A DNA stretch of 64,000 bases from a virus (Duplodnaviria > Caudoviricetes), in the IMG/VR virus record IMGVR_UViG_2700988850_000001, positions 1 through 64,000 of that record. One strand, 5' to 3'. This document shows, one piece after another, positions 152-56,160 of the stretch (position 1 is its first letter; each line of letters starts with the position of its first letter). The position numbers were made by a program, and so were the translations under genes. A model generated the notes under the pieces. It saw nothing but the letters and a program-made list of their open reading frames with translations. It was not told the DNA's origin and searched no databases.

Positions 152-1039
152 ATGACGGCATTAATCGAGAATGGCTTCGATCTATTCTGGCGCAATCCTC
201 ACAACTACGTGAACGAGATGAAGCAGAATCACGAAGTGAATGTCGCATGGGACCGCGGCATTCTTACAAAGCTTCGCATCGACCAGTACATGTACTCGAA
301 GATGAAGTTCGGCCCGCTCGGGAAGTTCTGGCGAAGCTACAACATCAGCTCGTGGGACTGCATCGAGTACGACGCGGACTGCGAGCCTGGCAAGCCAAGA
401 GCTGTGTACCCGGCTTTCGACTGGTGCAACGAAGACCTCGACACGCTGCTGGGGTACATCGCTGCACCCTGGGGCGAGGACGCTTCGCTCTATCGGGACA
501 CGTCCATCCCTCGACACCTCCGGCCAGTGAAGGGCCAGCCTCACCGCATCTTCATTACCAACCTGCCGAGCATGCGGACGCTGGAAGGTAAGTACCAGCT
601 CGTAGTGCTCGCGAAGATTCAGCGCAAGTTCCCGCAGGCCGAGTTGTTCATCCACCGGCTCTACGGATTCGGCGACCTGTTCGGTAACAAGTTCAGGGCT
701 GGCGACATTGACCCTCGCATGATCGCGAGCAAGGGGAAGATCTACCTGACAAACGGTCGATACTTCGACACCCGCACTGCCGACCGCGACATGCTGTCGA
801 ACTACGTGCGTCCTTTGGGTTGGTCGGTCGATGAGCTGGACGACGCGAAGAACCGATGCCGGTACAACATGCACGCGGCCAAGTGGGCATCGTTGCATTG
901 GGACAAGGAGGGCAGACCTCCGATGCACGTTCCGAAGGACTTCCGTCCGGACCATGAGTCGTCTGATCTAGACTTGAATCCACTCATGGTAAAAAAAGAT
1001 CACCCGGTCTCAAGCTCGCTGAGCTTGGAGACCGGATAG
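152..1039 (+). CDS. Gene 1, 0-frame product (295 aa), function unknown; N-terminal part of a probable frameshift fusion
   Basis: Long ORF with phage-like codon usage immediately upstream of the terminase region. Confidence 0.8.
   Translation: MTALIENGFDLFWRNPHNYVNEMKQNHEVNVAWDRGILTKLRIDQYMYSKMKFGPLGKFWRSYNISSWDCIEYDADCEPGKPRAVYPAFDWCNEDLDTLLGYIAAPWGEDASLYRDTSIPRHLRPVKGQPHRIFITNLPSMRTLEGKYQLVVLAKIQRKFPQAELFIHRLYGFGDLFGNKFRAGDIDPRMIASKGKIYLTNGRYFDTRTADRDMLSNYVRPLGWSVDELDDAKNRCRYNMHAAKWASLHWDKEGRPPMHVPKDFRPDHESSDLDLNPLMVKKDHPVSSSLSLETG
991..1035 (+). promoter_or_regulatory. Candidate programmed -1 ribosomal frameshift signal
   Basis: In-frame A AAA AAA at 991-997, 6-nt spacer, then hairpin CCGGTCTC-AAGCTC / GAGCTT-G-GAGACCGG (1004-1035). 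Confidence 0.7.
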
Positions 1040-1548
1040 TTTGCAACGAGTGCTCGCTATGGAATAGCTGCACCTACTATCGAGAAGGGAACATGTGCAC
1101 CGTGCCAGGATCAGAAGGCAAGAAGCTTGCCGATTACTTCAAGTCTACCAACCCTGCTGAGATTGCAGAAGGCATGCGCAGCATTGTCGCCGAGCAGGCT
1201 GACATTGTTGACGAGATGCTTGCTGATCACAAGGCGCGGGGCACAGACGAGACTGACCCCGAGCTGATGAAGAACATGAACAGTGTCTTCAAGAATGCAA
1301 AGAGTCTGCACGATATCGTCAACCCGAAGCAGAAGGGTCCGCTGGTCCAGATCGGCATTGCCAATGGCATGCCTCTTCCGGCGATCAACTCCTCTAGTGA
1401 TCCGCGAGAACTTGCTGCGATGGTAGTGAAGGAACTTGAGGCTCAGCTTCCTCCCGGTACAGAGATCACCGACGAGATGGTGAAGATGCGACTCGAGCAA
1501 TACGTCGGCGCACAGAAGGCTATCGAGGCTGAGGTGATCGAACCGTGA
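997..1548 (+). CDS. -1 frame extension of gene 1 (contains ORF 1093-1548); Cys cluster plus helical domain, candidate terminase small subunit
   Basis: Frame open from 967 to 1548; encodes CNECSLWNSCTYYREGNMC running into ATG 1093; lies directly upstream of TerL. Confidence 0.6.
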   Translation, partial: RSPGLKLAELGDRIVCNECSLWNSCTYYREGNMCTVPGSEGKKLADYFKSTNPAEIAEGMRSIVAEQADIVDEMLADHKARGTDETDPELMKNMNSVFKNAKSLHDIVNPKQKGPLVQIGIANGMPLPAINSSSDPRELAAMVVKELEAQLPPGTEITDEMVKMRLEQYVGAQKAIEAEVIEP

Positions 1549-1607
1549 TGATTCTCATTGACCTTGCTGTCGTTCTGTTCCGTCTACTAGTGACAGGACT
1601 TGGATAA
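1548..1607 (+). CDS. 19-aa hydrophobic minigene MILIDLAVVLFRLLVTGLG
   Basis: Starts in a TGATG overlap with the upstream stop and ends in a TAATG overlap with the TerL start. Confidence 0.5.
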   Translation: MILIDLAVVLFRLLVTGLG

Positions 1608-3589
1608 TGTCTCACCCGCTCGGGCCGAACATTGACGCGATCCTCGCAGAGAAGAAGTGGCTTGACCAGCATCCTCAGTTCGAGGAGCGCCCGGCAACCA
1701 TGCGTGAGTTCGTCACTGCCAAGTACCTGAACATCGAGGCCAATGTTCGACCGGGCGTCATGGCTGCGCTCATTGAAATCTTCGGCGACAAGATTGATCC
1801 GAACTGGATCAGCGTGAAGCGCAAGGCCGTCATGACTGGCGGCATCGGCATCGGCAAGACCACGTTCGCTTCGATCGTACTGCCGTACATGGTGCACTGG
1901 GTCTACTGCCTCAAGGACCCGCAGGACTTCTTCGGACTCGCACCCGGATCGAAGATCGCCTTCATGATGATGAGTACGTCAGAGAAGCAGGCGACTGAAG
2001 TTCTGTTCGGCGATGTGAAGGCTCGCGTCGAGAACTCGCCCTGGTTCGAGCGACGCTGCCCGTACGATCCGAAGTTCGAGAAGCAGCTTCGATTCGCGAA
2101 GAAGAACCTGTGGATTCTTCCAGGTGGTTCCGAGGAAACCCGGTTCGAGGGTTACAACATCCTTGGCGGTGTCATTGACGAGGGTGACTCGCACAAGAAA
2201 ACTGCGCGCAAGGACTACGCAGAAGAAGGCTACGATACGATCCACTCCCGTATCGAGTCTCGGTTCATGGATCACAAGGCTGGGAAGTTCAAGGGTATTC
2301 TTATCCTGATCGGCCAGACCAAGAGTGCTACCGGATTCATGCGGCGCATGTACAACGAGTTCATGAAGGAACCCGACGCTGCCGCGATCCGCATGTCGAT
2401 CTGGGAATCTTACGGCTGGCATCGGTACACCGAGAATCCGGACGACGAGAAGAACTACCGCGAGACTGCGCCACGCAAGAGCTTCGTCTACGACGTGATG
2501 CGCAAGGAGATTATCAAGAAGGAAGATGCCGACGCAGCAGGCATCGACTACCAGAGTGGCAATGACAAGTTCATCGAGGTGCCGCTCGCCTACATCGCTG
2601 GCTTTATCAAGAACCCAGTGAAGGCTCTCCGAGACCTTGCAGGTATTCCTCCGGAAGCTTCCGACCCGTTCATCGCCATGACGCATCGTATCACCGAGTG
2701 CCAAGATCGCTGGCATGAGCGCATGGGTGCGAAGGTTCCTGTGAACGACTCGGCGCATGCCCCGAAGTTCGAGCCGTGGTTCAAGGCAACCGATCGAATC
2801 AAGCGCGTCATGCATGTGGATATCGGCGTGTCCGATGAGGGTGACGCCTTGGGCATGGCGATGGGTCACGTCCCGGAGATTGTGGAGATTGACGGGGAGT
2901 GGAAGCCACTGATTGTCTTTGACTTCCTGCTCCGCTGGCACGCAGCCAAGGGTACACAGATCGTGCTCGGTGATGTGCGCCGACTGATCTATCACCTGAA
3001 GAACGACCTGAAGTTCAATCTGACTCACGTCACGACTGACTCATTCCAGTCCACGGACTTCCAGCAGCAGCTTCGTAAGAACAAGTTCAACGTCCAGGAG
3101 ATTTCCGTTGATCGTAAGAAGATGCCCTACGAAGACTTCCGTGACGCTGTATACGATGGGCGAGTTCTATTTCCGCACTACAAGACGCATCTTTACAAAG
3201 GTGATACCGACCTCGTGGATATCGCGTTTCGAGAACTTTCTCAGCTGAGCGACACCGGACAGAAGATCGACCACCCTCCGAAGGGAAGTAAGGATGTTGC
3301 GGACTGCATGGCTGGCGTGGTCCATCACCTTATGAACGACAGCCAGTTCCGGCGCGGCGCTCGCCGGGATCGGCAGGATGGTGTCAATGTTGCACCGGAC
3401 ACTTTCGGTGCTGTTGACCTTTCGAAGATCGTCAGCGGTCACGTCGAGGACGAAGGTTCAAAGGTTATGAACCCCGTGTCGTTCGACAACTTCGATGAGG
3501 GAATGCTGAATCAGTTCGGACCGAACCAGCCGACCAGTCTGTCGGGAAGTCCTTTCGGATTCGATCCTAACGTCCCCCCGATCTGGTGA
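1607..3589 (+). CDS. terL: Terminase large subunit
   Basis: Walker A GGIGIGKT, Walker B GGVIDE, RNase H-like nuclease motifs HVDIG and SKDVAD. Confidence 0.93.
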   Translation: MSHPLGPNIDAILAEKKWLDQHPQFEERPATMREFVTAKYLNIEANVRPGVMAALIEIFGDKIDPNWISVKRKAVMTGGIGIGKTTFASIVLPYMVHWVYCLKDPQDFFGLAPGSKIAFMMMSTSEKQATEVLFGDVKARVENSPWFERRCPYDPKFEKQLRFAKKNLWILPGGSEETRFEGYNILGGVIDEGDSHKKTARKDYAEEGYDTIHSRIESRFMDHKAGKFKGILILIGQTKSATGFMRRMYNEFMKEPDAAAIRMSIWESYGWHRYTENPDDEKNYRETAPRKSFVYDVMRKEIIKKEDADAAGIDYQSGNDKFIEVPLAYIAGFIKNPVKALRDLAGIPPEASDPFIAMTHRITECQDRWHERMGAKVPVNDSAHAPKFEPWFKATDRIKRVMHVDIGVSDEGDALGMAMGHVPEIVEIDGEWKPLIVFDFLLRWHAAKGTQIVLGDVRRLIYHLKNDLKFNLTHVTTDSFQSTDFQQQLRKNKFNVQEISVDRKKMPYEDFRDAVYDGRVLFPHYKTHLYKGDTDLVDIAFRELSQLSDTGQKIDHPPKGSKDVADCMAGVVHHLMNDSQFRRGARRDRQDGVNVAPDTFGAVDLSKIVSGHVEDEGSKVMNPVSFDNFDEGMLNQFGPNQPTSLSGSPFGFDPNVPPIW

Positions 3590-13656: not shown

Positions 13657-13665
13657 CATTACCGG

Positions 13666-13697
13666 AAGCCGGGGCAGGAAAATCCTGCCCCGGCTTT
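13666..13697 (+). terminator. Intrinsic terminator after capsid genes
   Basis: AAGCCGGGGCAGGA / TCCTGCCCCGGCTT inverted repeat ending in TTT. Confidence 0.75.
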
Positions 13698-13716
13698 GCC
13701 ACTACCAGGAGGAACA

Positions 13717-16906: not shown

Positions 16907-16944
16907 TGAGTGGGGGCAAGGAGGAGAGGCCTTGCCCCCACTCA
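16907..16944 (+). terminator. Strong hairpin after tail tube gene
   Basis: TGAGTGGGGGCAAGG / CCTTGCCCCCACTCA 15-bp stem with no clear U tract. Confidence 0.55.
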
Positions 16945-16981
16945 ACACCTCTCTATTTTAACGGACCTAGAAAGGGCCACA

Positions 16982-17548
16982 ATGACTACCACGCAGGATA
17001 TCTCTTCTTTCGACGGCGATCCCCACGTCGAGGCAACCCACCAGAACATGGTGGACGCTGGCGTAAGGGTCGAGACGCCGCAGATCGTTGACTACTGGTC
17101 GTTCTCCACGACCGAGCGGTTCATGCTTCCCGATGGTGTTCAGTACATCGAGTTCAAGAAGATGACCGAGGCGGACAAGACGGAGTTCCAGGCCAAGACG
17201 AACCGCGACATTCGCGTTCAGTCCACGACCAAGGATATCAAGCTCCGCATGGACCCCGGTCTCGAGCGTCGAGTTCTTCTGGATATCTGCGTCACCGGCT
17301 GGCTGTTCTACCGCCCGTCCACTCGTCCGCAGGACAACGGCGCACTTGTTCAGATCGGCTGGGACAAGCGCCTCTGGGCTGAGTGGCTGACCAAGGCTGA
17401 CCCCGAGATTGTTCAGAATCTCGAGAAGGCTATCCGCGATGCGAACCCGTGGATGCGCCAGCAGGCTACCCCGGAAGAGATCAAGGCTGAGATCGCCAGC
17501 CTGCAAGAGCAGCTCGAAGAGGCGGAGCTTCTCGAACTGGAAAAATAA
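16982..17548 (+). CDS. Tail assembly chaperone (gpG)
   Basis: Lies between tail tube and tape measure; ends ...CTG GAA AAA TAA. Confidence 0.82.
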   Translation: MTTTQDISSFDGDPHVEATHQNMVDAGVRVETPQIVDYWSFSTTERFMLPDGVQYIEFKKMTEADKTEFQAKTNRDIRVQSTTKDIKLRMDPGLERRVLLDICVTGWLFYRPSTRPQDNGALVQIGWDKRLWAEWLTKADPEIVQNLEKAIRDANPWMRQQATPEEIKAEIASLQEQLEEAELLELEK

Positions 17549-17820
17549 CCTTCCGCGAGCAGGCTTCGCAGTACGCTCGCGGTGAGAAGATCGAGAACAC
17601 GCACCCCATCATCAAGCTGTTTCACCGCTGCAAACTCTACAAGACACTCCCCTGGGCAGGTGGTCTCATGGACCAGGACCCGATGATCTTGGACATGTTC
17701 GATGTCATCAATGGGGAGATTGCTCGAGAGGAAAATGCGCGACAAGAGAAGCAGCGCAAGGAGATGGAGCGCAAAAAAGGTTCCGGCAAGAGCCTCGCCG
17801 GACGCCGGAACCGCAGGTAG
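16982..17820 (+). CDS. Tail assembly chaperone gpGT via -1 frameshift at GGAAAAA (17539-17545)
   Basis: The -1 frame is open to TAG 17818-17820 and contains LPWAGGLMDQDP, a typical gpT motif, with no start of its own upstream of that motif. Confidence 0.8.
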
Positions 17821-17866
17821 GAACAGGAGCTATGCTTTACAGCATAGCTCCTGTTCCTTTATTCTT
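17819..17866 (+). terminator. Intrinsic terminator-like hairpin before tape measure
   Basis: 18-bp perfect stem AGGAACAGGAGCTATGCT / AGCATAGCTCCTGTTCCT followed by TTATTCTT. Confidence 0.7.
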
Positions 17867-29752: not shown

Positions 29753-31497
29753 TGGCTAACAAGCCTACGCCTTACATTGAGAAGGCATTCCTTCAGCCAG
29801 TCGTTGACATTATCCGGCGCATCGAAATCTATGAGTACGACGGGCGTACGCCATGGAAGCCGGAGTTGTGGGATCGACTTCTGATCGACGGTTCTGTCAC
29901 CGCTGATCACGACTCGGAGAACCGACGGTCCTTCGAAGTCACGCTCGATAACCTGGACAACGAACTCGACCCGGAGGCTGGCAACCTCTGGTTCGATAAG
30001 GTGTTCAAGGTTATGTACGGCATCGAACTGAATCAGAAGCCGCGCAAGCCGAAGATCCTTATTGCGGAAGAGTACCAGTCCACGGGACAGGCGCTGCTGT
30101 TGAAGGCAGCCCTGTCCCGTGCAGGGTTCAAGTTCGTGCACTACAATCCGCAGGCAGACTTGTACAGCGATGTTGAGCAGTTCGATATCATCGTGAGTAT
30201 CAGCTCCGACTACACCCGCAAGCTGGCACTTCTCACCGAGGCGTTCAGCAAGGGTAAGTCCATCATCACCTTCGGTCTCAATGCTACGTCTGCACAGCTC
30301 CCCTACCTTATCGCAGGCGCAGGATTGAACATGTCCACCGATAGTGGAGTCCGGTCTATTGCACCGAATACTTCCCTGGTGAGCGAGGTGACAGTCGGCT
30401 GGTCTCAGTGGAACCTTGTCGGTCCTCAGTCGTACCGCAAGATCGACACGCCTCACGCGGAGGCGCAGGTCTTGGCGTGGCAGACGGATGCAACCAACGG
30501 CATCTCGCCTGGTGTTGTAGCTCGCTCAGCCTTCGGAGGCTCGCGGTGGATGCACGTGATGCAGAACAAGTTCGGCGCGTCTGACTTCAACTCCACCAAC
30601 GACGCCGACCAGTTCGAGCAGTTCCTCGCGGCGTCGGTTGACTGGGTTGACACCTTCGTTCCACAAGCCAAGTGGGAAACGCAGATCGGTGAGTTCATCT
30701 CCGACAGCATCGGGTACGCCGACGACTTTGGCGATACCATCAAGGTGACCGGACGCGACTACACCAAGCGCTGTCAGCTCTCAAAGCTTGTTGCGGCGAC
30801 CATGTTCACTAAGGATCAGAAGGTCGAGGAGGTCATCAAGACCCTCGCGCTGAACTGCAACATTGACAAGTTCAATCTGATCACGACGAACAAGACGCTC
30901 GGCAAGGATATGACTTACGAGCGCGACACGGATCGCTGGTCGATCATGAAGGAGATCGCTACGGCGCACAGCTATGAGCTGTTCTTCGACGCCTCGGGAT
31001 ACCTTACCATGACCGAGTTCAATGATCCACTTCTCACTCCCCCGACGCTGGTACTTACTACCGGCGTCGGGGGTAACCTCGTGTCGCGAGGACGTAAGAC
31101 TTCCGACTCGCGACTGTTCAATCACATCGTCGTAGTGGGCGAGAGTTCCGACTCCTCCAAGCTGCCGGTGTGGGCTGAGGCGAAGAATGAAAACCCGAAC
31201 TCGGCAAGCAACATCCAGACCATCGGCGACCGTGTGATGGTGTACACTTCCAGTGCCATCACTGAGACGGGACAGGCGATGGAACTTGCCAACTCGTACC
31301 TCAGCGTGGCGGCACTGGAAGAGTTCGAGCTTAACTTCTCGAGCGTCATGTTCCCGTGGATCGAGCCTGGCGAAATCCTCGAGATGCAAGACGACGAGAC
31401 CTGGGGTCCAGGACGATTCCTGATCGGACAGTTGACATTCCCTCTCGACCTTAGCCCGATGAGCGGAACCGGAAAGCGGGTGACGAAGGTAGCATGA
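29752..31497 (+). CDS. Minor tail (baseplate hub/Tal-like) protein
   Basis: IKVTGRD, LFFDASG, FNHIVVVGE and PWIEPGE motifs. Confidence 0.8.
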   Translation: MANKPTPYIEKAFLQPVVDIIRRIEIYEYDGRTPWKPELWDRLLIDGSVTADHDSENRRSFEVTLDNLDNELDPEAGNLWFDKVFKVMYGIELNQKPRKPKILIAEEYQSTGQALLLKAALSRAGFKFVHYNPQADLYSDVEQFDIIVSISSDYTRKLALLTEAFSKGKSIITFGLNATSAQLPYLIAGAGLNMSTDSGVRSIAPNTSLVSEVTVGWSQWNLVGPQSYRKIDTPHAEAQVLAWQTDATNGISPGVVARSAFGGSRWMHVMQNKFGASDFNSTNDADQFEQFLAASVDWVDTFVPQAKWETQIGEFISDSIGYADDFGDTIKVTGRDYTKRCQLSKLVAATMFTKDQKVEEVIKTLALNCNIDKFNLITTNKTLGKDMTYERDTDRWSIMKEIATAHSYELFFDASGYLTMTEFNDPLLTPPTLVLTTGVGGNLVSRGRKTSDSRLFNHIVVVGESSDSSKLPVWAEAKNENPNSASNIQTIGDRVMVYTSSAITETGQAMELANSYLSVAALEEFELNFSSVMFPWIEPGEILEMQDDETWGPGRFLIGQLTFPLDLSPMSGTGKRVTKVA

Positions 31498-34521: not shown

Positions 34522-34564
34522 GAAAACCCCCGGTACCTAATGAAAGGTACCGGGGGTTTTCTTA
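34519..34564. terminator. Bidirectional terminator between converging arms
   Basis: 20-bp inverted repeat TAAGAAAACCCCCGGTACCT / AGGTACCGGGGGTTTTCTTA. Confidence 0.9.
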
Positions 34565-39836: not shown

Positions 39837-40188
39837 CGAGCACCGTCGCAAGCTTCGCAAGGTTCTGCTCGCCCCAGATTGTGGGGAGTAGCTGGTACTC
39901 TTCGCTCAGTGTGCACACCACCATCTTGAGCTTGTCTGCAACCCAGAGTTCCAGTCGCGCTCCACGGCTAGCCTCCCACCCTTCGAGAAGAATGATGCCG
40001 TCGCAATCGAGCATGGACTTGAGGTCACGCTTCAGGTACCACTCCCAGTCCTGAGAGAAGTCGTCAGTCAACTCGTGAGGGCTGACAATCTCGTGATGCC
40101 TTGATCGCAGCTCCTCGGCCACCTCTTGGAATCGGGGGTAGTTATGCCCTTCGATCCCAGTCATGGGACCTGAGATGTAGTACTTCAT
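39829..40188 (-). CDS. Nucleoside 2-deoxyribosyltransferase-like (DUF4406) protein
   Basis: YISGPMTG...N...F, CDGI, GWEASRGARLE. Confidence 0.85.
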   Translation of the reverse strand: MKYYISGPMTGIEGHNYPRFQEVAEELRSRHHEIVSPHELTDDFSQDWEWYLKRDLKSMLDCDGIILLEGWEASRGARLELWVADKLKMVVCTLSEEYQLLPTIWGEQNLAKLATVLGV

Positions 40189-41300
40189 CCGTTCTTAACC
40201 TCTCGCCGTGGAACAACCCAACACTTGTATTCATCCTCACCCTCGAATCGGACGGCGGAGAGGGGCCGGTCGATTGAGTAGTTGATGGTGACCAAGATGC
40301 CGGGGGCTTTGCCTACTGCGTTCACGAAATACTCAGGTGTGAACTTGAACTTGATCGGCTCGTGAATGCACTGGCCTGGCAACTCCAAGGCGTCGTCAAT
40401 GCTATTGACTCCCGCCTCGTCTTGCGTGTAGAAGGAAATCTCCTCGTTGCCAATCGTAACCCAGAGGTCGGTCTGCCTGTCCTTTGCGATGACTGTCATA
40501 ATGCGCTGGACAATTTCGACCATCTGCTCACGGTTCGCAAGGATGGTGTTCTCAGTCTCTTGGCTTGTGACCTTCGAGACTGGCGGGTAGTTCTCGCCCA
40601 GCAGTACACACTTGATCTGCGTGTAATCATTGGGCGCGAGGCACAGGAAGTTTCCGTCAACCCGTCCTCGAGTCTCGTCCATCTGCGACAGCAAAGGTGC
40701 GAGCACTGCCATGGGGACGAGAACGCTGTCCTCTTCCATGTTCAGTGCCAGCGGAGCAGTGACCAGCTTGTACCCGTCGGTCGCCACGATGGATTCACCG
40801 TCAAGGTAGACGGAGGACGTAGCCTGAGATTCCTTGCGCGAGACTGCCCAGGCTACCTGGTCAAGTCGAGCACCGAATCCGTTGAGCGGGCTGGTCTCTT
40901 CGTAGTCGAAGTCCTCCCACTCCGGGTACTCGCGGTCAATGAGTCCGACCGATGCGCGAGTTCTTCCCGAGGTAATTCGAATCTTGTTTCCCTCGAGCTT
41001 AAACGTGCACTTCTTTCCCGACCCGATAGGCAGGGCGTTGATGATACCCGATGTGACTGCGGAAGGTACGCGCCACGTCGTGGCCTCCCCTTGGATGGAG
41101 AGCGGGTTCATCCACTCCTTGTAGAACACGCCACCATTGGTGGCATGGGCGACGACCTGACCGCCACCCATGCCGTCCGGCAGAATCTCAAGAAGGATGC
41201 CAGCATACTTCTCAATCTCGGTGCCCTTCATCGGGGCAATCCGCGCAGCCTTCTTGAGAGTATCTGCCAGAGCTGCCGTCTCAAAGACAACTTCAGTCAT
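40185..41300 (-). CDS. dnaN: DNA polymerase III beta sliding clamp
   Basis: 371 aa; VATDGYKL, YP motifs, C-terminal VVPR. Confidence 0.88.
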   Translation of the reverse strand: MTEVVFETAALADTLKKAARIAPMKGTEIEKYAGILLEILPDGMGGGQVVAHATNGGVFYKEWMNPLSIQGEATTWRVPSAVTSGIINALPIGSGKKCTFKLEGNKIRITSGRTRASVGLIDREYPEWEDFDYEETSPLNGFGARLDQVAWAVSRKESQATSSVYLDGESIVATDGYKLVTAPLALNMEEDSVLVPMAVLAPLLSQMDETRGRVDGNFLCLAPNDYTQIKCVLLGENYPPVSKVTSQETENTILANREQMVEIVQRIMTVIAKDRQTDLWVTIGNEEISFYTQDEAGVNSIDDALELPGQCIHEPIKFKFTPEYFVNAVGKAPGILVTINYSIDRPLSAVRFEGEDEYKCWVVPRREVKNG

Positions 41301-44491: not shown

Positions 44492-44529
44492 GAGAAGAAG
44501 GGCGGGGTCAGGAAACCCTGACCCCGCCC
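44492..44529 (-). terminator. Intrinsic terminator after SSB-like gene
   Basis: 13-bp GC-rich stem (44500-44529) followed by TTCTTCTC on the minus strand. Confidence 0.75.
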
Positions 44530-44561
44530 GATTACTTAGTCACACTGTGACCAAGTGTCTA

Positions 44562-48164: not shown

Positions 48165-48463
48165 TACAGAAGTCCCATCGCTCGGAGCCTGAGTTGTCCA
48201 CGTTCCTCTGCGGTCAAGAAGCCCAGGCCGGGGATCAGGTAGTCTCTCGGGTACAGGTAGACATTCTTCTTGATGCTCCCGTCCCTCAGGATGTGCTGCG
48301 CCTTCCGGGTCGGGCATCGCATGCACACTAGAACCTGAATGAATCCACCACGGGGACGCTCAACCGTGTGGTACTTCCATGCGTGCATGAGTGCACGGCA
48401 CGTCACGTACTTGTCGGGAATGTCATTGATCGTCGGCTTCTTCGGCCTGGACTTCTTGCTCAT
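48164..48463 (-). CDS. Small Cys/His-containing protein
   Basis: CR...HAW...CxxC; overlaps the recombinase stop. Confidence 0.65.
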   Translation of the reverse strand: MSKKSRPKKPTINDIPDKYVTCRALMHAWKYHTVERPRGGFIQVLVCMRCPTRKAQHILRDGSIKKNVYLYPRDYLIPGLGFLTAEERGQLRLRAMGLL

Positions 48464-49269
48464 AGCTCTACACCTTCTCGCATCTGTTCGAGAGCAACAG
48501 CCGTGTAAGTTTCTGTGGTCTTGGAGCTTGCATGACCCAGGAACTCTTGCACTACACGAATGTTGTTTGTTTTGTTGTGCATTGCAGTAGCTACCGTGGC
48601 CCGCCCATCATGAGTGGCGGAATCGCCGAGACCGGCCTTACCTGCAATGTCCTTCCAGCGACGCCGTGCCGTCCGATCAGACAGCGGCACAAGCATTTCG
48701 CCGGGTCCAGCCTCGCTAATGCGGTCACGAAGGTCTTCCCAAGCCTGGCTCGAGATGGGAACCTCGCGAGTCTTATCCCCCTTGCCGATCACCGTGATCA
48801 CGCGCTCGTCAGTGTCGATGCTATAAGTTGAGAGTGATCGCACCTCACTGATGCGGAGACCGCACCTACCTAGCAGTGTTACAAGTGCTCGGTCGGTAGG
48901 CGTCTCGCACACGCTGACCATCTTGGCAACGGCGTCCATGCCTCCGCTAAGCGGATGGGGTTTCGGTCTCGGAGGTCGGGGCGGGGAGTAGTCCTCCAAG
49001 ATCGTCCCCATCCCAGCCCACTTCCCGTAGGTCTTGAACGTCGCCAGTCTCCTGATTACTGTTCTCGGCGCTGAGTCCTTCCTTGTCGTCGTCAAGTACT
49101 TCGAGGCTGCCTCCTCGAAGGTTGATGACGTGTCGCCTGACGTACGAATCCAGGCTAGCAACCCACTCAGATCGCTTCCGTAGGAACGGGTAGTGTGTGA
49201 ACTTCGTCCCCTCTCGGACAAGTATTCGAGGAACCTGGCGATAGAGTCGATGGTAAGAGTCGTCTCCAT
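48460..49269 (-). CDS. XerC/D-like tyrosine recombinase
   Basis: Catalytic set R(GLRISE), K(GKGDK), HxxR(HDGR), H(LGH), Y(TETY) intact; start uncertain. Confidence 0.9.
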   Translation of the reverse strand: METTLTIDSIARFLEYLSERGRSSHTTRSYGSDLSGLLAWIRTSGDTSSTFEEAASKYLTTTRKDSAPRTVIRRLATFKTYGKWAGMGTILEDYSPPRPPRPKPHPLSGGMDAVAKMVSVCETPTDRALVTLLGRCGLRISEVRSLSTYSIDTDERVITVIGKGDKTREVPISSQAWEDLRDRISEAGPGEMLVPLSDRTARRRWKDIAGKAGLGDSATHDGRATVATAMHNKTNNIRVVQEFLGHASSKTTETYTAVALEQMREGVEL

Positions 49270-49567
49270 TTGCGAACGCCTCCTGGGCGATTCGATCTCT
49301 AGCCTCCACGATGGACTGCGCTTGAGCAAAGGAGATATCCCAAAACTCCTTGGTCGCCGCCAGTTCATCACGGGTCATGTCGGATAGCTTGGCCGATACA
49401 ACCCTGTTCTGTGCTCGCATTCTCACGACCACATCGTGTCCGGCCTCGCCACTGAAGTATCTGTTCTCCTCATTCTTATTGATGAACAAGGTGAAGCTGA
49501 TGTGGTTCACATCCAGAAGCGCCCTGGTGTAGTCGGCAAGCTTTGCTCTGATCTTTCTCTGTGCCAT
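48947..49567 (-). CDS. Hypothetical protein overlapping the recombinase 5' end
   Basis: Starts 2 nt after the upstream stop; only ORF covering 49372-49567. Confidence 0.55.
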   Translation of the reverse strand: MAQRKIRAKLADYTRALLDVNHISFTLFINKNEENRYFSGEAGHDVVVRMRAQNRVVSAKLSDMTRDELAATKEFWDISFAQAQSIVEARDRIAQEAFANGDDSYHRLYRQVPRILVREGTKFTHYPFLRKRSEWVASLDSYVRRHVINLRGGSLEVLDDDKEGLSAENSNQETGDVQDLREVGWDGDDLGGLLPAPTSETETPSA

Positions 49568-52605: not shown

Positions 52606-54540
52606 TCACATTAGGCGTTTGCCTAGATGCTGCACGACACGCGGATAATCCTCGTGCCCGTGTACTGCCACAGTATCGAGTCCGTGAGCGGTCGGGGAGT
52701 CCGTGCAGATTCCCACGCCGAGAAGCGTGATCCCCTTCTGCTTGCACAGTCTGATCTCACTCTGTAGCACGGGAAGTTCTTCCCTTGTTCCAGCACCAGG
52801 CATGGCACCGTCGGTGAAGTACATGATGATTTTGTCCGTGGCTCGAGACTTCTCAATCATCTTCCGGTAGAACTGCAACGAGTGACCGTCGAAGTTTGAA
52901 CCGGCGTTGCCCATGAGACGGAGGCGATCCTTGGTTGCCGAACTCCACGGGTCCTTGACAGTCTTGACCGTGTGGATATCCATGGTGTACCCACCAGCCG
53001 CATGCCCCGTGTTGTGGGTGTAGATAGAGAACTTGATACCGAGTCGCTGGCATACCTCAGCCAGTGCGTACACGGATTCCTTGAGCATCTGTAGCCGGTT
53101 CTTATTCTGACCGTAGACGCCAGAGGAAGTCGAGCCTGAGATATCGAACCCGATCAGGACTTCGTAGTCCCGCTTGTCCGGCACCTTCTTGGTCTGGAAC
53201 AGTCGCCCGTCCTTCGGATTCCATGCACGCTTCCCCAGCGACGACGATGCAATGCGCCCCGCCTTCTGGTTGCGATGGTACTCAACCCGTGCATTGATAC
53301 CGAACGCGATGCGAGCATGGTTAACCGCCTTGCCTAGCACCCGCTCGGATGGAATCTCCATATCACCTTCCCACTTGTCGCCATGGCAAGGTCCAGCGTC
53401 AGCTTCATGCACACGGATGTGATCAAAGCTGCCGGGGATGTTGTCAAGGTGCTCGAGGTTCATCACCACCCGATCCATGGCGTGTGAGAAGTTGGGGTCG
53501 TGGTCCTGCGGGAGACCGCTTCCGCCACCCTCACCATCCTCGGCCTGCGTCACTTCACCCTCGCCTGCACCGTGACCCAGGATTCCCTTAAGGATGCCAC
53601 CGAGAAGCTTCATAAGCTCCTCGAACTCCTCACGTTCTTCGTCGGTCATTTCCTCTACAGGCTTTCGGTTCTCAGTGAAGAACCCAAGCTCACGCAGCTC
53701 GGCGAGAAGTTTCGCCGATGCAATCAGCGTTGCCTTCGCATCGGCGTGGTCGGCAACGTCACTCAGGATGGACTGAACCTTGGGCGTCTCGACAGCATCC
53801 ACCGCGTCGTCGTCAAGGTGCCCTCGAAGATTGAACCCTTCCATGCTGAACAGGCACCCGATCATGACCTGCTCGTCTCGACTACGGTCACCCCAGAGCA
53901 GGTAGCTTCCGTCATCCATGGGGGTGCCGTTGCGCAGAATGTCCTGGCTTGTTGCTCGCATACTCAGCCGCAAGGCTGGTTCGAGCTTGTAGCTGGCCGT
54001 GTTGATCCGGTGATCTTCCAGCGGCATGTTCAACATGCTCAGGTGCGGATGAATCTTGCTAGCCAGCGAGAGTGAGGTTTCACACTTCGAGCTGTCAGTC
54101 CGCCTCCACAGCTCCTGGATGTGATCATTGTACTCGGGAAGAATCGGTCGGATTAGATCGTAGATATCACCGATGCCGTAGTACGAGAACTGATGAAAGC
54201 TTCCGTGCATGATGTGCGCCAGCTCGTGGTGCAGGTGCGTGGTGACTTCATCCCGACTCTTGCATGCCCGGCAGATCAAGTGCCCGTCATATCCACGTGC
54301 GCCACACAGATTCATCTGGTGCTTGATCCTGTCGCCGAGCGAGGCGGGCGGACGAATCTCGATCTTGACTCCATCCGTCTGAGTCTTGGTGGACGGAACT
54401 ACATAGACCCGCCTGCCCGCCTTGCTGCTGGCGTACCGAGAAAGACCGGGCGTCATCTTGCGGAACTCAGAGTAGGCACGGCGTGCTCGCGCTTCGGCGT
54501 TGCGCTTTGCCTGTTCGGTGGCCGGTTCAAGCATGGACAT
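52606..54540 (-). CDS. vWA-domain protein (CobT-like) with N-terminal HExxH motif
   Basis: HHELAH, LEDHRIN, MIDAS DISGS, FTDG and LLGVGI. Confidence 0.87.
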   Translation of the reverse strand: MSMLEPATEQAKRNAEARARRAYSEFRKMTPGLSRYASSKAGRRVYVVPSTKTQTDGVKIEIRPPASLGDRIKHQMNLCGARGYDGHLICRACKSRDEVTTHLHHELAHIMHGSFHQFSYYGIGDIYDLIRPILPEYNDHIQELWRRTDSSKCETSLSLASKIHPHLSMLNMPLEDHRINTASYKLEPALRLSMRATSQDILRNGTPMDDGSYLLWGDRSRDEQVMIGCLFSMEGFNLRGHLDDDAVDAVETPKVQSILSDVADHADAKATLIASAKLLAELRELGFFTENRKPVEEMTDEEREEFEELMKLLGGILKGILGHGAGEGEVTQAEDGEGGGSGLPQDHDPNFSHAMDRVVMNLEHLDNIPGSFDHIRVHEADAGPCHGDKWEGDMEIPSERVLGKAVNHARIAFGINARVEYHRNQKAGRIASSSLGKRAWNPKDGRLFQTKKVPDKRDYEVLIGFDISGSTSSGVYGQNKNRLQMLKESVYALAEVCQRLGIKFSIYTHNTGHAAGGYTMDIHTVKTVKDPWSSATKDRLRLMGNAGSNFDGHSLQFYRKMIEKSRATDKIIMYFTDGAMPGAGTREELPVLQSEIRLCKQKGITLLGVGICTDSPTAHGLDTVAVHGHEDYPRVVQHLGKRLM

Positions 54541-54552
54541 GACGCCCCCTTT

Positions 54553-56160
54553 CTAGTGGTTGCTCTTGTTAACTTCGGACAGGATCATCTCGCGTGCCTC
54601 AGGCTCGAGATAATCCGCAGCCGCCAGCCGGAAGGCTTCGGGCATGGAGAACAGTCGCAGTGCTCGTGCCACCTTGATGTTCTGTCGGATACCCCACGTC
54701 ACCGGAAGGGCACCGTCCTCGCCGAGCTTGCGCAGCTCGGCAGAGATCTTCATGAGCGTGGACAGCTCGGAGGAAGGTAGGTCGAACCCGTCCAGCTTGC
54801 ACCGCTTGAGAATGATTTCCTTCTCAAGCTTCTCCGTCGGGTAGTCCACGAAGATGTGCATGAGTCGGGAGCCGTCAGCATCGGAGATAACTTCCGCGCC
54901 AATGTTGCGGGCATCCCACGCCGGGTTCATTGCCATGCCCAGGTAGCTGAACTTGTGCCGGTCTACGACCTGACCCTCGTTAGCATCAAGGACTAGCTGC
55001 TTGGCGTTGTCTGTCATGGGTCGGATGAACTGCCAGACTTCCGGGCCACCGACGTTCGGCTCGTCCAGCACCTGAACACAAGGCTTGGCCCACGCTCGAG
55101 GGATGCGGCCCTCCACGAAGTAGGTACCCTTGCCTTCTTCGTAATGCGTCTTGCCTTGCAGGTCGTCCAGCTCAGTTGACTTGGTGATACTCACCCGCTC
55201 GAACGGGAGACCCATGAGCCAGGCGAGCCAGCGGAACGCCTCAGTCTTACCCGTGCCAGCCACGCCGTGCAGTGCGGGAGTCTCACCCAGGTCCCAGATC
55301 GCACTGATCTTGTAGAGCAGATTGTCGTGGTCCTTGTACAGCTCAGGATGGTTCTCGTCCCCGGTCTGAGGAATCTTTGCCAGCTCGTCCGGGTCGTTGA
55401 TGAAGAAGTCCCGGTCGAAGATGGGGAGCATTACACTCTTGGTGTGGCTGTCGTTCCAGATTTCACGCCACGCCTTGATGCCACAATCCTTGTCCTCCTG
55501 TGTCACAGGCTTGTCTGTGCTGTAGTCTTGCGGGTCCTGGACGGGTGCCTCAGGCTGCGGAACATTCGCCCCGAACTTGTCGAGCTTAGGGAATGCAGGC
55601 TGCAATTCAGGGAACAGGATCGCGTCACCGAGAAGGTTGTCGATGTGCTCGTCAATGTTCGGGGCGTGGATCATCTCGCCTTCGGTGCACGCCTCGGCAA
55701 CCTTGCCAGTCTTGGCTTGGGAAACTAGGATGCCACGCTTGGCGCAGTACCCATAGTTCATGCCGAACTCTTTCTGCACCACCTTGGAGTCAACGTGGAA
55801 GTGGCAGCTCCGGCACGAGTGGGGCGCACCCCACTGCTCGCGACTTGACTGCTGCCCCTCGGGGGTCGGCATGGTCGGCATGGGAAGTGCGACGGCGAGC
55901 GACGGCGAATCCTTTGCCGAGCGAGGGCGCGGCTTGCCGTGCGAGTCACAGGTGCGAGCGACCTGCTCCTTGATCTTTGAGTTCACCTTCGGATCACCCT
56001 CGGGTGAACCGAGGAGCTTGCCCTTCAGGGGGCAGGTGTCAGCCTTGAGAATGGTTCCGTAGGCAGACACCTGCCCCTCGAAGCTTAGAGCCGCGAGCAT
56101 GCTCGGACAGGTTGCACACGACTTAGCCGGTGCGGTGGTCTCCTCTTGTACCTCAGTCAT
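54553..56160 (-). CDS. MoxR/CobS-like AAA+ ATPase with Cys-rich N-terminus
   Basis: GVAGTGKT, VLDEPN, AMNP, SRLM...DYP, WGIR; adjacent to the vWA gene. Confidence 0.9.
   Translation of the reverse strand: MTEVQEETTAPAKSCATCPSMLAALSFEGQVSAYGTILKADTCPLKGKLLGSPEGDPKVNSKIKEQVARTCDSHGKPRPRSAKDSPSLAVALPMPTMPTPEGQQSSREQWGAPHSCRSCHFHVDSKVVQKEFGMNYGYCAKRGILVSQAKTGKVAEACTEGEMIHAPNIDEHIDNLLGDAILFPELQPAFPKLDKFGANVPQPEAPVQDPQDYSTDKPVTQEDKDCGIKAWREIWNDSHTKSVMLPIFDRDFFINDPDELAKIPQTGDENHPELYKDHDNLLYKISAIWDLGETPALHGVAGTGKTEAFRWLAWLMGLPFERVSITKSTELDDLQGKTHYEEGKGTYFVEGRIPRAWAKPCVQVLDEPNVGGPEVWQFIRPMTDNAKQLVLDANEGQVVDRHKFSYLGMAMNPAWDARNIGAEVISDADGSRLMHIFVDYPTEKLEKEIILKRCKLDGFDLPSSELSTLMKISAELRKLGEDGALPVTWGIRQNIKVARALRLFSMPEAFRLAAADYLEPEAREMILSEVNKSNH

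Follow-up and report, generated by a model that had tools for sequence, protein, structure and literature searches.

The first two genes called in the window analysed here—the 64,000-nucleotide stretch comprising bases 1-64,000 of the 75,772-base virus record IMGVR_UViG_2700988850_000001 (Caudoviricetes; completeness rating 100%)—are likely to be a single gene of the family phrog_6902 ('terminase small subunit', TerS), expressed through programmed -1 ribosomal frameshifting as a 295-aa and a 465-aa isoform. Judged from the DNA and its relatives, the recoding site is real and conserved, its mechanism is of a known kind, and its gene context is new; the full protein is probably made only if the ribosome slips back by one base. 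We infer that the slippage is made by ribosomes rather than by RNA polymerase, and likewise would infer its efficiency and any separate role for the short isoform.

The signal lies near the end of the upstream open reading frame (ORF) (Table 1). A sequence-only reading of this DNA had proposed an in-phase slippery heptamer followed by a hairpin, and the register on which it relied is correct: when read in frame with ATG 152, positions 986-1000 give ATG GTA AAA AAA GAT, placing A AAA AAA in X XXY YYZ phase, and folding of 1004-1035 agrees with the stem of 14 bp and one bulge that it had placed six nucleotides downstream. The limits that it gave for the two frames also hold—the 0 frame closes with TAG at 1039, and the -1 frame, which reads ...KKRSPGLKLAELGDRIVCNECSLWNSCTYYREGNMC..., is open from 967 (after TGA 964-966) through to TGA 1546-1548. 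The predicted shifted product comprises 282 + 183 = 465 residues, with the junction ...LMVKK/RSPGLK....

The heptamer is the only X XXY YYZ motif within the frame overlap (967-1039), and its seven A residues form the only A7/T7 run on either strand of the 64 kb; since 2.4 such runs are expected per window, the run alone is not significant. In codon usage, AAA accounts for 30 of the 691 lysine codons in 26 genes (~4%, against 661 AAG), and the only AAA-AAA among the 39 in-frame Lys-Lys pairs of these genes is the one at 992-997. GTA makes up 9.7% of valine codons, and from the codon use of the phage the probability of GTA AAA AAA given Val-Lys-Lys is ~1.8e-4. On these figures the heptamer looks to have been selected against codon bias.

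The 76-nt stretch that holds the hairpin has a minimum free energy of -29.3 kcal/mol (z = -3.96), matched in stability by one of 200 shuffles, and only 12 distinct + strand sites, this hairpin among them, reach -23.4 kcal/mol or lower (31,982 36-nt windows; mean -7.1, standard deviation 3.4). The 15 windows of lowest energy (seven sites) are perfect or near-perfect G+C-rich stem-loops. Elsewhere on the + strand the most stable hairpins are at 13663-13698, 17821-17856, 31039-31074, 34523-34558 and 44495-44530 (-27.5 to -31.7 kcal/mol), at least two of which (13663 and 34523) are followed by a short T run. The hairpin at 1004-1035 has no T tract and was not called by a terminator scan, and we rejected it as an intrinsic terminator for these reasons. 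A second hairpin (1036-1060) was rejected as part of the signal because it is not kept in the nearest relative, Rhodococcus phage Perlina. No Rfam family was found at the shift site, and a repeat search did not pick up the hairpin at 1004-1035, owing to its bulge.

Bacterial -1 ribosomal frameshifting signals such as those of dnaX and IS3 elements are built from an in-phase heptamer, a short spacer, and a 3' hairpin, and by that analogy the heptamer, 6-nt spacer, and conserved 3' hairpin seen here are an instance of such a signal. Four elements of such a cassette were found: an in-phase heptamer in the overlap, a stable structure 6 nt downstream (within the usual 5-9 nt), a conserved -1 extension devoid of start codons upstream of ATG 1093, and conservation in relatives. 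In the mechanism that we propose, ribosomes starting at ATG 152 would arrive at GTA AAA AAA, where the hairpin would make them pause, allowing the two tRNA-Lys to slide back by one base on the A7 run and pair again. Those that do not shift would end at TAG 1037-1039, yielding a protein made of a TIM-barrel domain and a 13-residue out-of-frame tail; those that do shift would reach 1548 and add the Cys4 cluster and the helical C-terminal domain, giving the domain layout found in the single-ORF products of relatives.

Two well-known systems are close parallels. Escherichia coli dnaX (tau/gamma) shares the Lys-Lys heptamer, the 6-nt spacer, and the simple stem-loop, and likewise gives two isoforms with a common N-terminus and different C-terminal domains; there, however, the shifted ribosome terminates almost at once and makes the short product, whereas here the shift would lead to the long one. 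The OrfA/OrfAB arrangement of the IS3 family resembles the present gene in its overlapping ORFs, the second in the -1 frame, in its A-rich heptamer followed by a stem-loop, and in its products—a short 0-frame protein and a long transframe fusion that is the complete protein with an extra domain. The two differ in that IS3 encodes a transposase, whereas the gene described here belongs to a phage packaging module and has a heptamer ending in A rather than G (PMC5009743 and PMC13313380).

Perlina (PP782351.1) is the nearest public relative; its gene is 67% identical in nucleotides, and its protein 67% identical in the N-terminal half and 58% in the C-terminal half. It carries the same arrangement across its record origin. 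Its N-half is annotated as a 288-aa 'hypothetical protein' that ends in ...ATA AAA AAA AAT..., an A9 run in the same phase, followed by a 6-nt spacer (AATCTC) and a hairpin in which 31 of 32 nt are the same as in the window (-27.4 kcal/mol, z = -3.83), and its -1 frame runs into an annotated 145-aa 'terminase small subunit'. Positions 990-1044 are identical at 51 of 55 nt between the two phages, against 67% overall, and residues that are identical in both use the same codon at 10 of 12 positions in 997-1036 as compared with 140 of 273 elsewhere (P = 0.024). Perlina is reported to be circularly permuted, with headful packaging suggested (PMC11556095). The conserved 55 nt may also serve as a pac site.

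A closer relative, a strain with 98% identity, is represented by Logan contigs from three runs of a single silage-metagenome study (word depth ~17); these contigs span 700-1400 with 13 substitutions and no gaps. Twelve of the differences are listed: 11 of them hit the third codon position in the frame assigned to the half in question, and the remaining one replaces Ile with Val. This indicates purifying selection on both halves, each in a different frame. In addition, a soil metagenome run contains 159 nt from a more distant relative. No RNA run was listed among those that carry the stretch.

These comparisons bear on whether the frame break could be an artefact or a sign of decay, arising from a sequencing error in the homopolymer or from a mutation that has recently inactivated the gene. 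Homopolymer runs are classic places for indel errors and mutations, and most members of the family have a continuous ORF. The sequence-only reading had named an eighth A in the reads as the finding that would undo it; instead, the independent contigs of the 98%-identical strain contain no indel, and Perlina, sequenced at 3,499x (PMC11556095), holds the same register. We rejected a homopolymer error on these two grounds. A pseudogene was rejected on the residues conserved through synonymous changes in Perlina and on the tree of the split clade, in which thirteen split proteins break at one column and form one group (both described below). Together with the purifying selection on both halves, each in its own frame, this makes artefact or decay a very improbable account.

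The start codon assigned by gene callers to the second ORF, ATG 1093, falls inside the invariant motif of the family. In a 99-row alignment of the -1 product and 98 homologues, the only invariant columns are D12, C16, C19, C25 and C34, corresponding to the Asp of a GDR motif and four cysteines; the earlier observation that ATG 1093 would cut the Cys cluster apart is borne out, as three of the four cysteines, along with the Asp, are encoded upstream of it. No ATG, GTG or TTG occurs in the -1 frame between 967 and 1092, so translation can enter this stretch only from the upstream ORF. Moreover, positions 1039-1092 lie beyond the 0-frame stop, where no other frame constrains the DNA; in this region the window and Perlina retain all family-conserved residues while differing at the variable positions, and four of the conserved residues are retained via synonymous changes (CTA/TTG, TAT/TAC, CGA/AGA and GGG/GGA). 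By this comparative evidence, the -1 frame stretch upstream of ATG 1093 must be translated.

The main reading without any recoding takes the ancestral gene to have become two cistrons: their products, a barrel protein of 295 aa and a C-terminal protein of 151 aa begun at ATG 1093, would act as a complex, and 997-1092 would remain untranslated. The two ORFs are precisely those assigned by gene callers in the window and its relatives, a start codon stands at the 1093 position in both phages (GTG in Perlina) with a purine-rich AAGG ahead of it in each, and one relative, P0017, has a start upstream of the Cys cluster. Yet initiation at 1093 would discard three of the four Cys and the Asp, that is, most of the only residues that are invariant across the alignment, even though these are preserved in the -1 frame of both the window and Perlina through synonymous changes. 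The apparent initiation signals also have another explanation: the Met at 1093 is aligned with Val in Perlina and in fused homologues, Val or Met being a normal family residue at this position, and AAGG follows necessarily from the conserved YYR[EQ]G codons. Since two independent cistrons would in addition leave the rare-codon heptamer and the conserved hairpin unexplained, we regard this arrangement as quite improbable.

That the two reading frames encode parts of one protein is supported by homology. Residues 9-271 of the 0 frame match positions 10-270 of the phrog_6902 profile (469 positions; E 5.3e-39) and the -1 frame protein matches 293-463 of the same 469 (E 1.2e-39), while Pfam holds no family for either half. 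The sequence-only reading had described the C-terminus as TerS-like; the family is indeed annotated as TerS, but it is the whole protein that belongs to it, not the C-terminus alone. By tblastn the N-half was found in 95 phage records and the C-half in 112, nearly all from Gordonia and Tsukamurella phages, and in all 35 records that appear in both match tables under one accession (Gordonia/Tsukamurella phages) the halves are in the same frame; in GMA7, both lie inside one annotated coding sequence (42-1499). More broadly, GMA7, GTE7, TIN2-4, and ~90 SEA-PHAGES genomes (phrog_6902) share with the window both halves (27-39% identity), the Cys4 cluster, and a position upstream of the terminase large subunit (TerL), but their genes are single ORFs of ~460-485 aa without a frame break.

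Other databases gave the same picture of a family that is usually a single ORF of ~460-485 aa. Among distant relatives in IMG/VR (24-38% identity), the halves are in one frame in 32 of 33, and the Cys motif lies inside continuous ORFs at 28 loci, mostly of ~460-475 aa. The exception, L033 (2501-3419), has its halves in different frames (+1) at another place, and the first ~120 residues of its N-half are unmatched; L033 could represent a copy that is damaged or wrongly assembled. When the fused protein P0011 was used as query in an exhaustive profile-free search, 327 cluster representatives came back at E <= 1e-3, and the best 150 of the 327 are almost all 420-520 aa long. A metagenome scan added four distant loci, three with a continuous ORF of 464-468 aa (L037-L039) and one with only the start of the N-half (L040). 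No relative was found by scanning IMG/VR with the N-half alone or by scanning genome contigs, and an IMG/VR scan for the hairpin pattern gave 0 matches. The fused distant homologues lie outside the clade that carries the break, and they therefore serve to identify both halves rather than to refute recoding.

The fused protein P0011 (461 aa, continuous, 45% identical) also locates the frame change: it reads ...APLSIKRLSPGLKGMEQGDRIICNVCSL... where the predicted transframe product reads ...NPLMVKKRSPGLKLAELGDRIVCNECSL..., and the PLMVKK/RSPGLK junction aligns to its PLSIKRLSPGLK...GDRIICNVCSL residue for residue and without a gap. This confines the frame switch to 992-999, the A run. The two isoforms of 295 and ~465 aa and the ...LMVKK/RSPGLK junction that had been proposed from the sequence alone are thereby supported by the homology of both halves, the gapless junction, and the arrangement in Perlina.

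We then examined how the break is distributed within the family. Of the 13 N-half matches, 11 are 282-295 aa long, and in all 11 the shared alignment stops at the same column, directly following an almost invariant Lys, and gives way to short unrelated tails (...VKKDHPVSS..., ...IKKNLPVSS, ...VKKKLQEW..., ...LKKDCPA, ...VKKKRLTAE..., ...PSPKG and ...PIPKD); two more split proteins are P0031 (...VQKKVLTP...) and P0054 (...GPKG). In a maximum-likelihood tree, thirteen split proteins, with identities reaching down to ~40%, fall on one side of a branch, corresponding to one change (Shimodaira-Hasegawa-like approximate likelihood ratio test, 83), and fused P0011 is sister to the split group (92). 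Of the 110 rows in alignment A4 the tree drew on the first 60, using barrel columns only and leaving the junction out. The split-clade members (P0003-P0013, P0031 and P0054) are Logan/ENA/JGI proteins and were compared as protein sequences. As to the homologues in which the earlier reading had proposed to look for a conserved site, the break, the heptamer, and the hairpin are all kept in Perlina, whereas the distant homologues are continuous ORFs that lie outside the split clade.

Within this clade, a single DNA could, in -1 register and at just one offset, encode both the P0005 tail and the N-terminal 10 residues of P0017, which none of 2000 shuffles could; a third lineage therefore shares the -1 relationship. 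P0017 itself, a C-half of 181 aa, has been called with a start of its own that precedes GDR by six residues and lies ahead of the Cys cluster, and independent initiation of a complete C-half is possible in the P0005/P0017 lineage.

If the bases of the A run are where the frame changes, the slip could in principle be made by RNA polymerase: programmed transcriptional slippage that adds one A would yield a fraction of A8 mRNA encoding the 465-aa protein in one frame, and hence the same protein as a -1 shift. The A9 run of Perlina is in keeping with this, and the ...VKKK... relatives P0005 and P0007 may have runs of at least 9. Homopolymers that support transcriptional slippage typically have 9 or more residues, however, and the run in the window is only A7; nor can five PKG/PKD members of the clade hold a long A run. 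In addition, tandem tRNA slippage needs the X XXY YYZ phase and polymerase slippage does not, and conservation of this phase in both phages, through the rare codons GTA and ATA, therefore counts against the polymerase. The conserved element is, moreover, a hairpin 6 nt downstream, the geometry of signals that act on the ribosome in dnaX and IS3 (PMC5009743). Overall, we consider transcriptional slippage improbable and ribosomal frameshifting the likelier mechanism.

Several observations weigh against frameshifting as we describe it. DNA of the recoding site is represented by two phages plus the near-identical strain. The suppression of synonymous change reaches only P = 0.024, with the 13-codon window ranking 13th of 450, and a further 30 nt in the barrel-coding part, 332-361 (...NISSWDCIE...), are likewise 100% identical in Perlina, as compared with 67% overall. 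The sole hairpin difference in Perlina opens the loop-closing pair and has no compensation. Direct reading of the sequence upstream of the heptamer revealed no Shine-Dalgarno-like stimulator, an element by which dnaX, in contrast, is aided. In E. coli, A AAA AAA shifts less than A AAA AAG (PMC5009743), a comparison that concerns E. coli and not Rhodococcus ribosomes. Finally, five split-clade members end in ...PKG or ...PKD and cannot carry the A7 run, which implies another heptamer or a stop-start overlap there; a stop-start overlap in these members would mean that the halves can work as separate proteins. The ...PKG/...PKD subgroup comprises P0008, P0009, P0010, P0012, P0013 and P0054, whose sequences mostly stop immediately after this ending.

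Structure prediction provided a view of the two parts that frameshifting would join. The AlphaFold2 model of the N part (110 sequences; predicted local distance difference test (pLDDT) 93.5, predicted template modelling (TM) score 0.89) is, unexpectedly, an alpha/beta (TIM) barrel over residues ~10-250, with pLDDT of 94-98 at residues 11-250 and 57-82 after residue 250; given this lower-confidence linker after the barrel, the shift site lies between domains. The best structural match among 48,161 chains is archaeosine TGT (Z 12.5, root-mean-square deviation 3.3, 206 aligned), followed by DpdA (7ui4, Z 11.2), TGT (10.8) and QTRT2 (10.4), and then by an unrelated TIM barrel (10.3). Foldseek also found TGT (E 3.4e-4, TM 0.46), and among viral models (BFVD) the N part matched phage 'queuine tRNA-ribosyltransferase' entries at E 1e-4 to 1e-3 as well as Gordonia phage 'terminase small subunit'. 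DpdA, one of these fold matches, is a DNA preQ0 insertase. At the level of sequence, TGT models matched none of 110 family members at E <= 1, the N-half had no match in Pfam, PDB sequences or the Atlas, and a PHROGs search of 65 + 18 other ORFs (whole genome) revealed no preQ0-pathway gene. The likeness of the N-half to the TGT/DpdA guanine transglycosylase superfamily, drawn from models, is best taken as a fold-level lead and not as membership.

The C part was modelled with a pLDDT of 83 as the Cys cluster, a long helical hairpin, and two further helices; the Cys4 cluster is presumably zinc-binding. Foldseek gave no significant match for this part, and VIA-align gave generic helical-hairpin matches only (best Z 7.1), among which a T6 small terminase chain ranked 45th (Z 6.2). 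PHROGs revealed no second TerS candidate among 83 further ORFs of the whole genome, and the putative 'small terminase' function derives from annotation and gene order alone. More tentatively, and in our view with more doubt than confidence, the clade as a whole may possess a recoded two-isoform 'small terminase' (by -1 frameshifting, or by stop-start overlap in some members), with one isoform of the barrel alone and one that adds the zinc cluster and helical domain; on this reading the protein would be no classical TerS, but a TGT/DpdA-derived barrel, as a DNA-recognition protein or enzyme, would have been recruited to packaging, and the isoform ratio would tune packaging initiation.

In phages, the familiar case of -1 frameshifting is the tail assembly chaperone (G/GT), which is like the present gene in being a late gene that makes a long fusion, there at a fixed ratio, but is another gene in another module. 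The sequence-only reading had called the packaging-module site a second one besides that of the chaperone, and a chaperone site does appear to be present: the chaperone of the window (phrog_3096, 16910-17548) ends ...CTG GAA AAA TAA (17537-17548), and its -1 frame continues to 17820 at ...GGA AAA ATA A..., reading ...GKITFREQ.... The region 16910-17820 is thus likely to hold a second -1 site in the window, one that likewise uses a Lys AAA codon, there placed beside a stop. The chaperone shift of Perlina itself has been described as -2 (PMC11556095).

Full-text literature searches, judged by their result listings, turned up no report of a frameshift in a small-terminase gene. The Perlina announcement mentions only the tail-chaperone frameshift (PMC11556095), and neither it nor the available parts of PMC4563357 and PMC13313380 describe one in a terminase gene. 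In the first 300,000 characters of a 2016 recoding review (PMC5009743), 'terminase' occurs only in connection with Streptomyces phage Hau3, for whose terminase translational bypassing at a UUA codon was proposed. For Hau3 and the window alike, recoding is proposed in a phage terminase gene; in Hau3, however, it would be bypassing and not -1 slippage, and the phage and the gene are unrelated.

Elsewhere in the window, an integrase-family ORF (48463-49371, - strand) matches phrog_216 and phrog_1 (E ~2e-34), and a CobT-like cobalamin-biosynthesis protein (52609-56160, - strand) is encoded with an adjacent ATPase; a CobT-like gene is also noted in the Perlina announcement (PMC11556095). The gene for a DNA polymerase processivity factor (40188-41300) contains two in-phase heptamers, GGGAAAG and GGGAAAC, 27 nt apart (40992-41025, - strand). 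No tRNA gene was found in the window.

Table 1. Features of the recoded gene and its downstream neighbour (positions within the window)
Feature	Position	Strand	Description
0-frame ORF	152..1039	+	295 aa plus stop, start ATG 152; N-terminal family half, barrel then linker with the predicted shift site
-1 frame continuation	997..1548	+	183 codons plus stop TGA (1546-1548); Cys4 cluster and helical C-terminal family half
Slippery heptamer A AAA AAA	991..997	+	in phase with the 0 frame, codons GTA AAA AAA
Spacer GATCAC	998..1003	+	6 nt
Stem-loop	1004..1035	+	14 bp, one bulge, 3-nt loop
0-frame stop TAG	1037..1039	+	directly 3' of the hairpin
Invariant Asp of GDR	1030-1032	+	precedes the Cys4 cluster
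Cys4 cluster C-x2-C-x5-C-x8-C	1042..1098	+	Cys codons 1042, 1051, 1069, 1096
ATG 1093	1093..1095	+	first -1 frame ATG; start of the 151-aa ORF called by gene callers
Terminase large subunit	1607..3589	+	next gene downstream; phrog_2, E 1e-21; order as in Perlina and GMA7

To the few phage genes for which -1 frameshifting is the mode of expression, these results add one from the packaging module. They also matter for annotation—at present the N-half is left hypothetical or standing alone, and a 'TerS' of 145-151 aa is called from an internal codon that cuts the only invariant motif, in the window as in Perlina—and an annotation that takes the shift into account puts right the first gene of these genomes. 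The TGT/DpdA-like fold raises the separate question of what the 'small terminase' does with DNA. Finally, the fused sister, the members with an A run and hairpin, and the PKG/PKD members constitute a natural series on the use of a fixed ratio of truncated to full-length protein in packaging.

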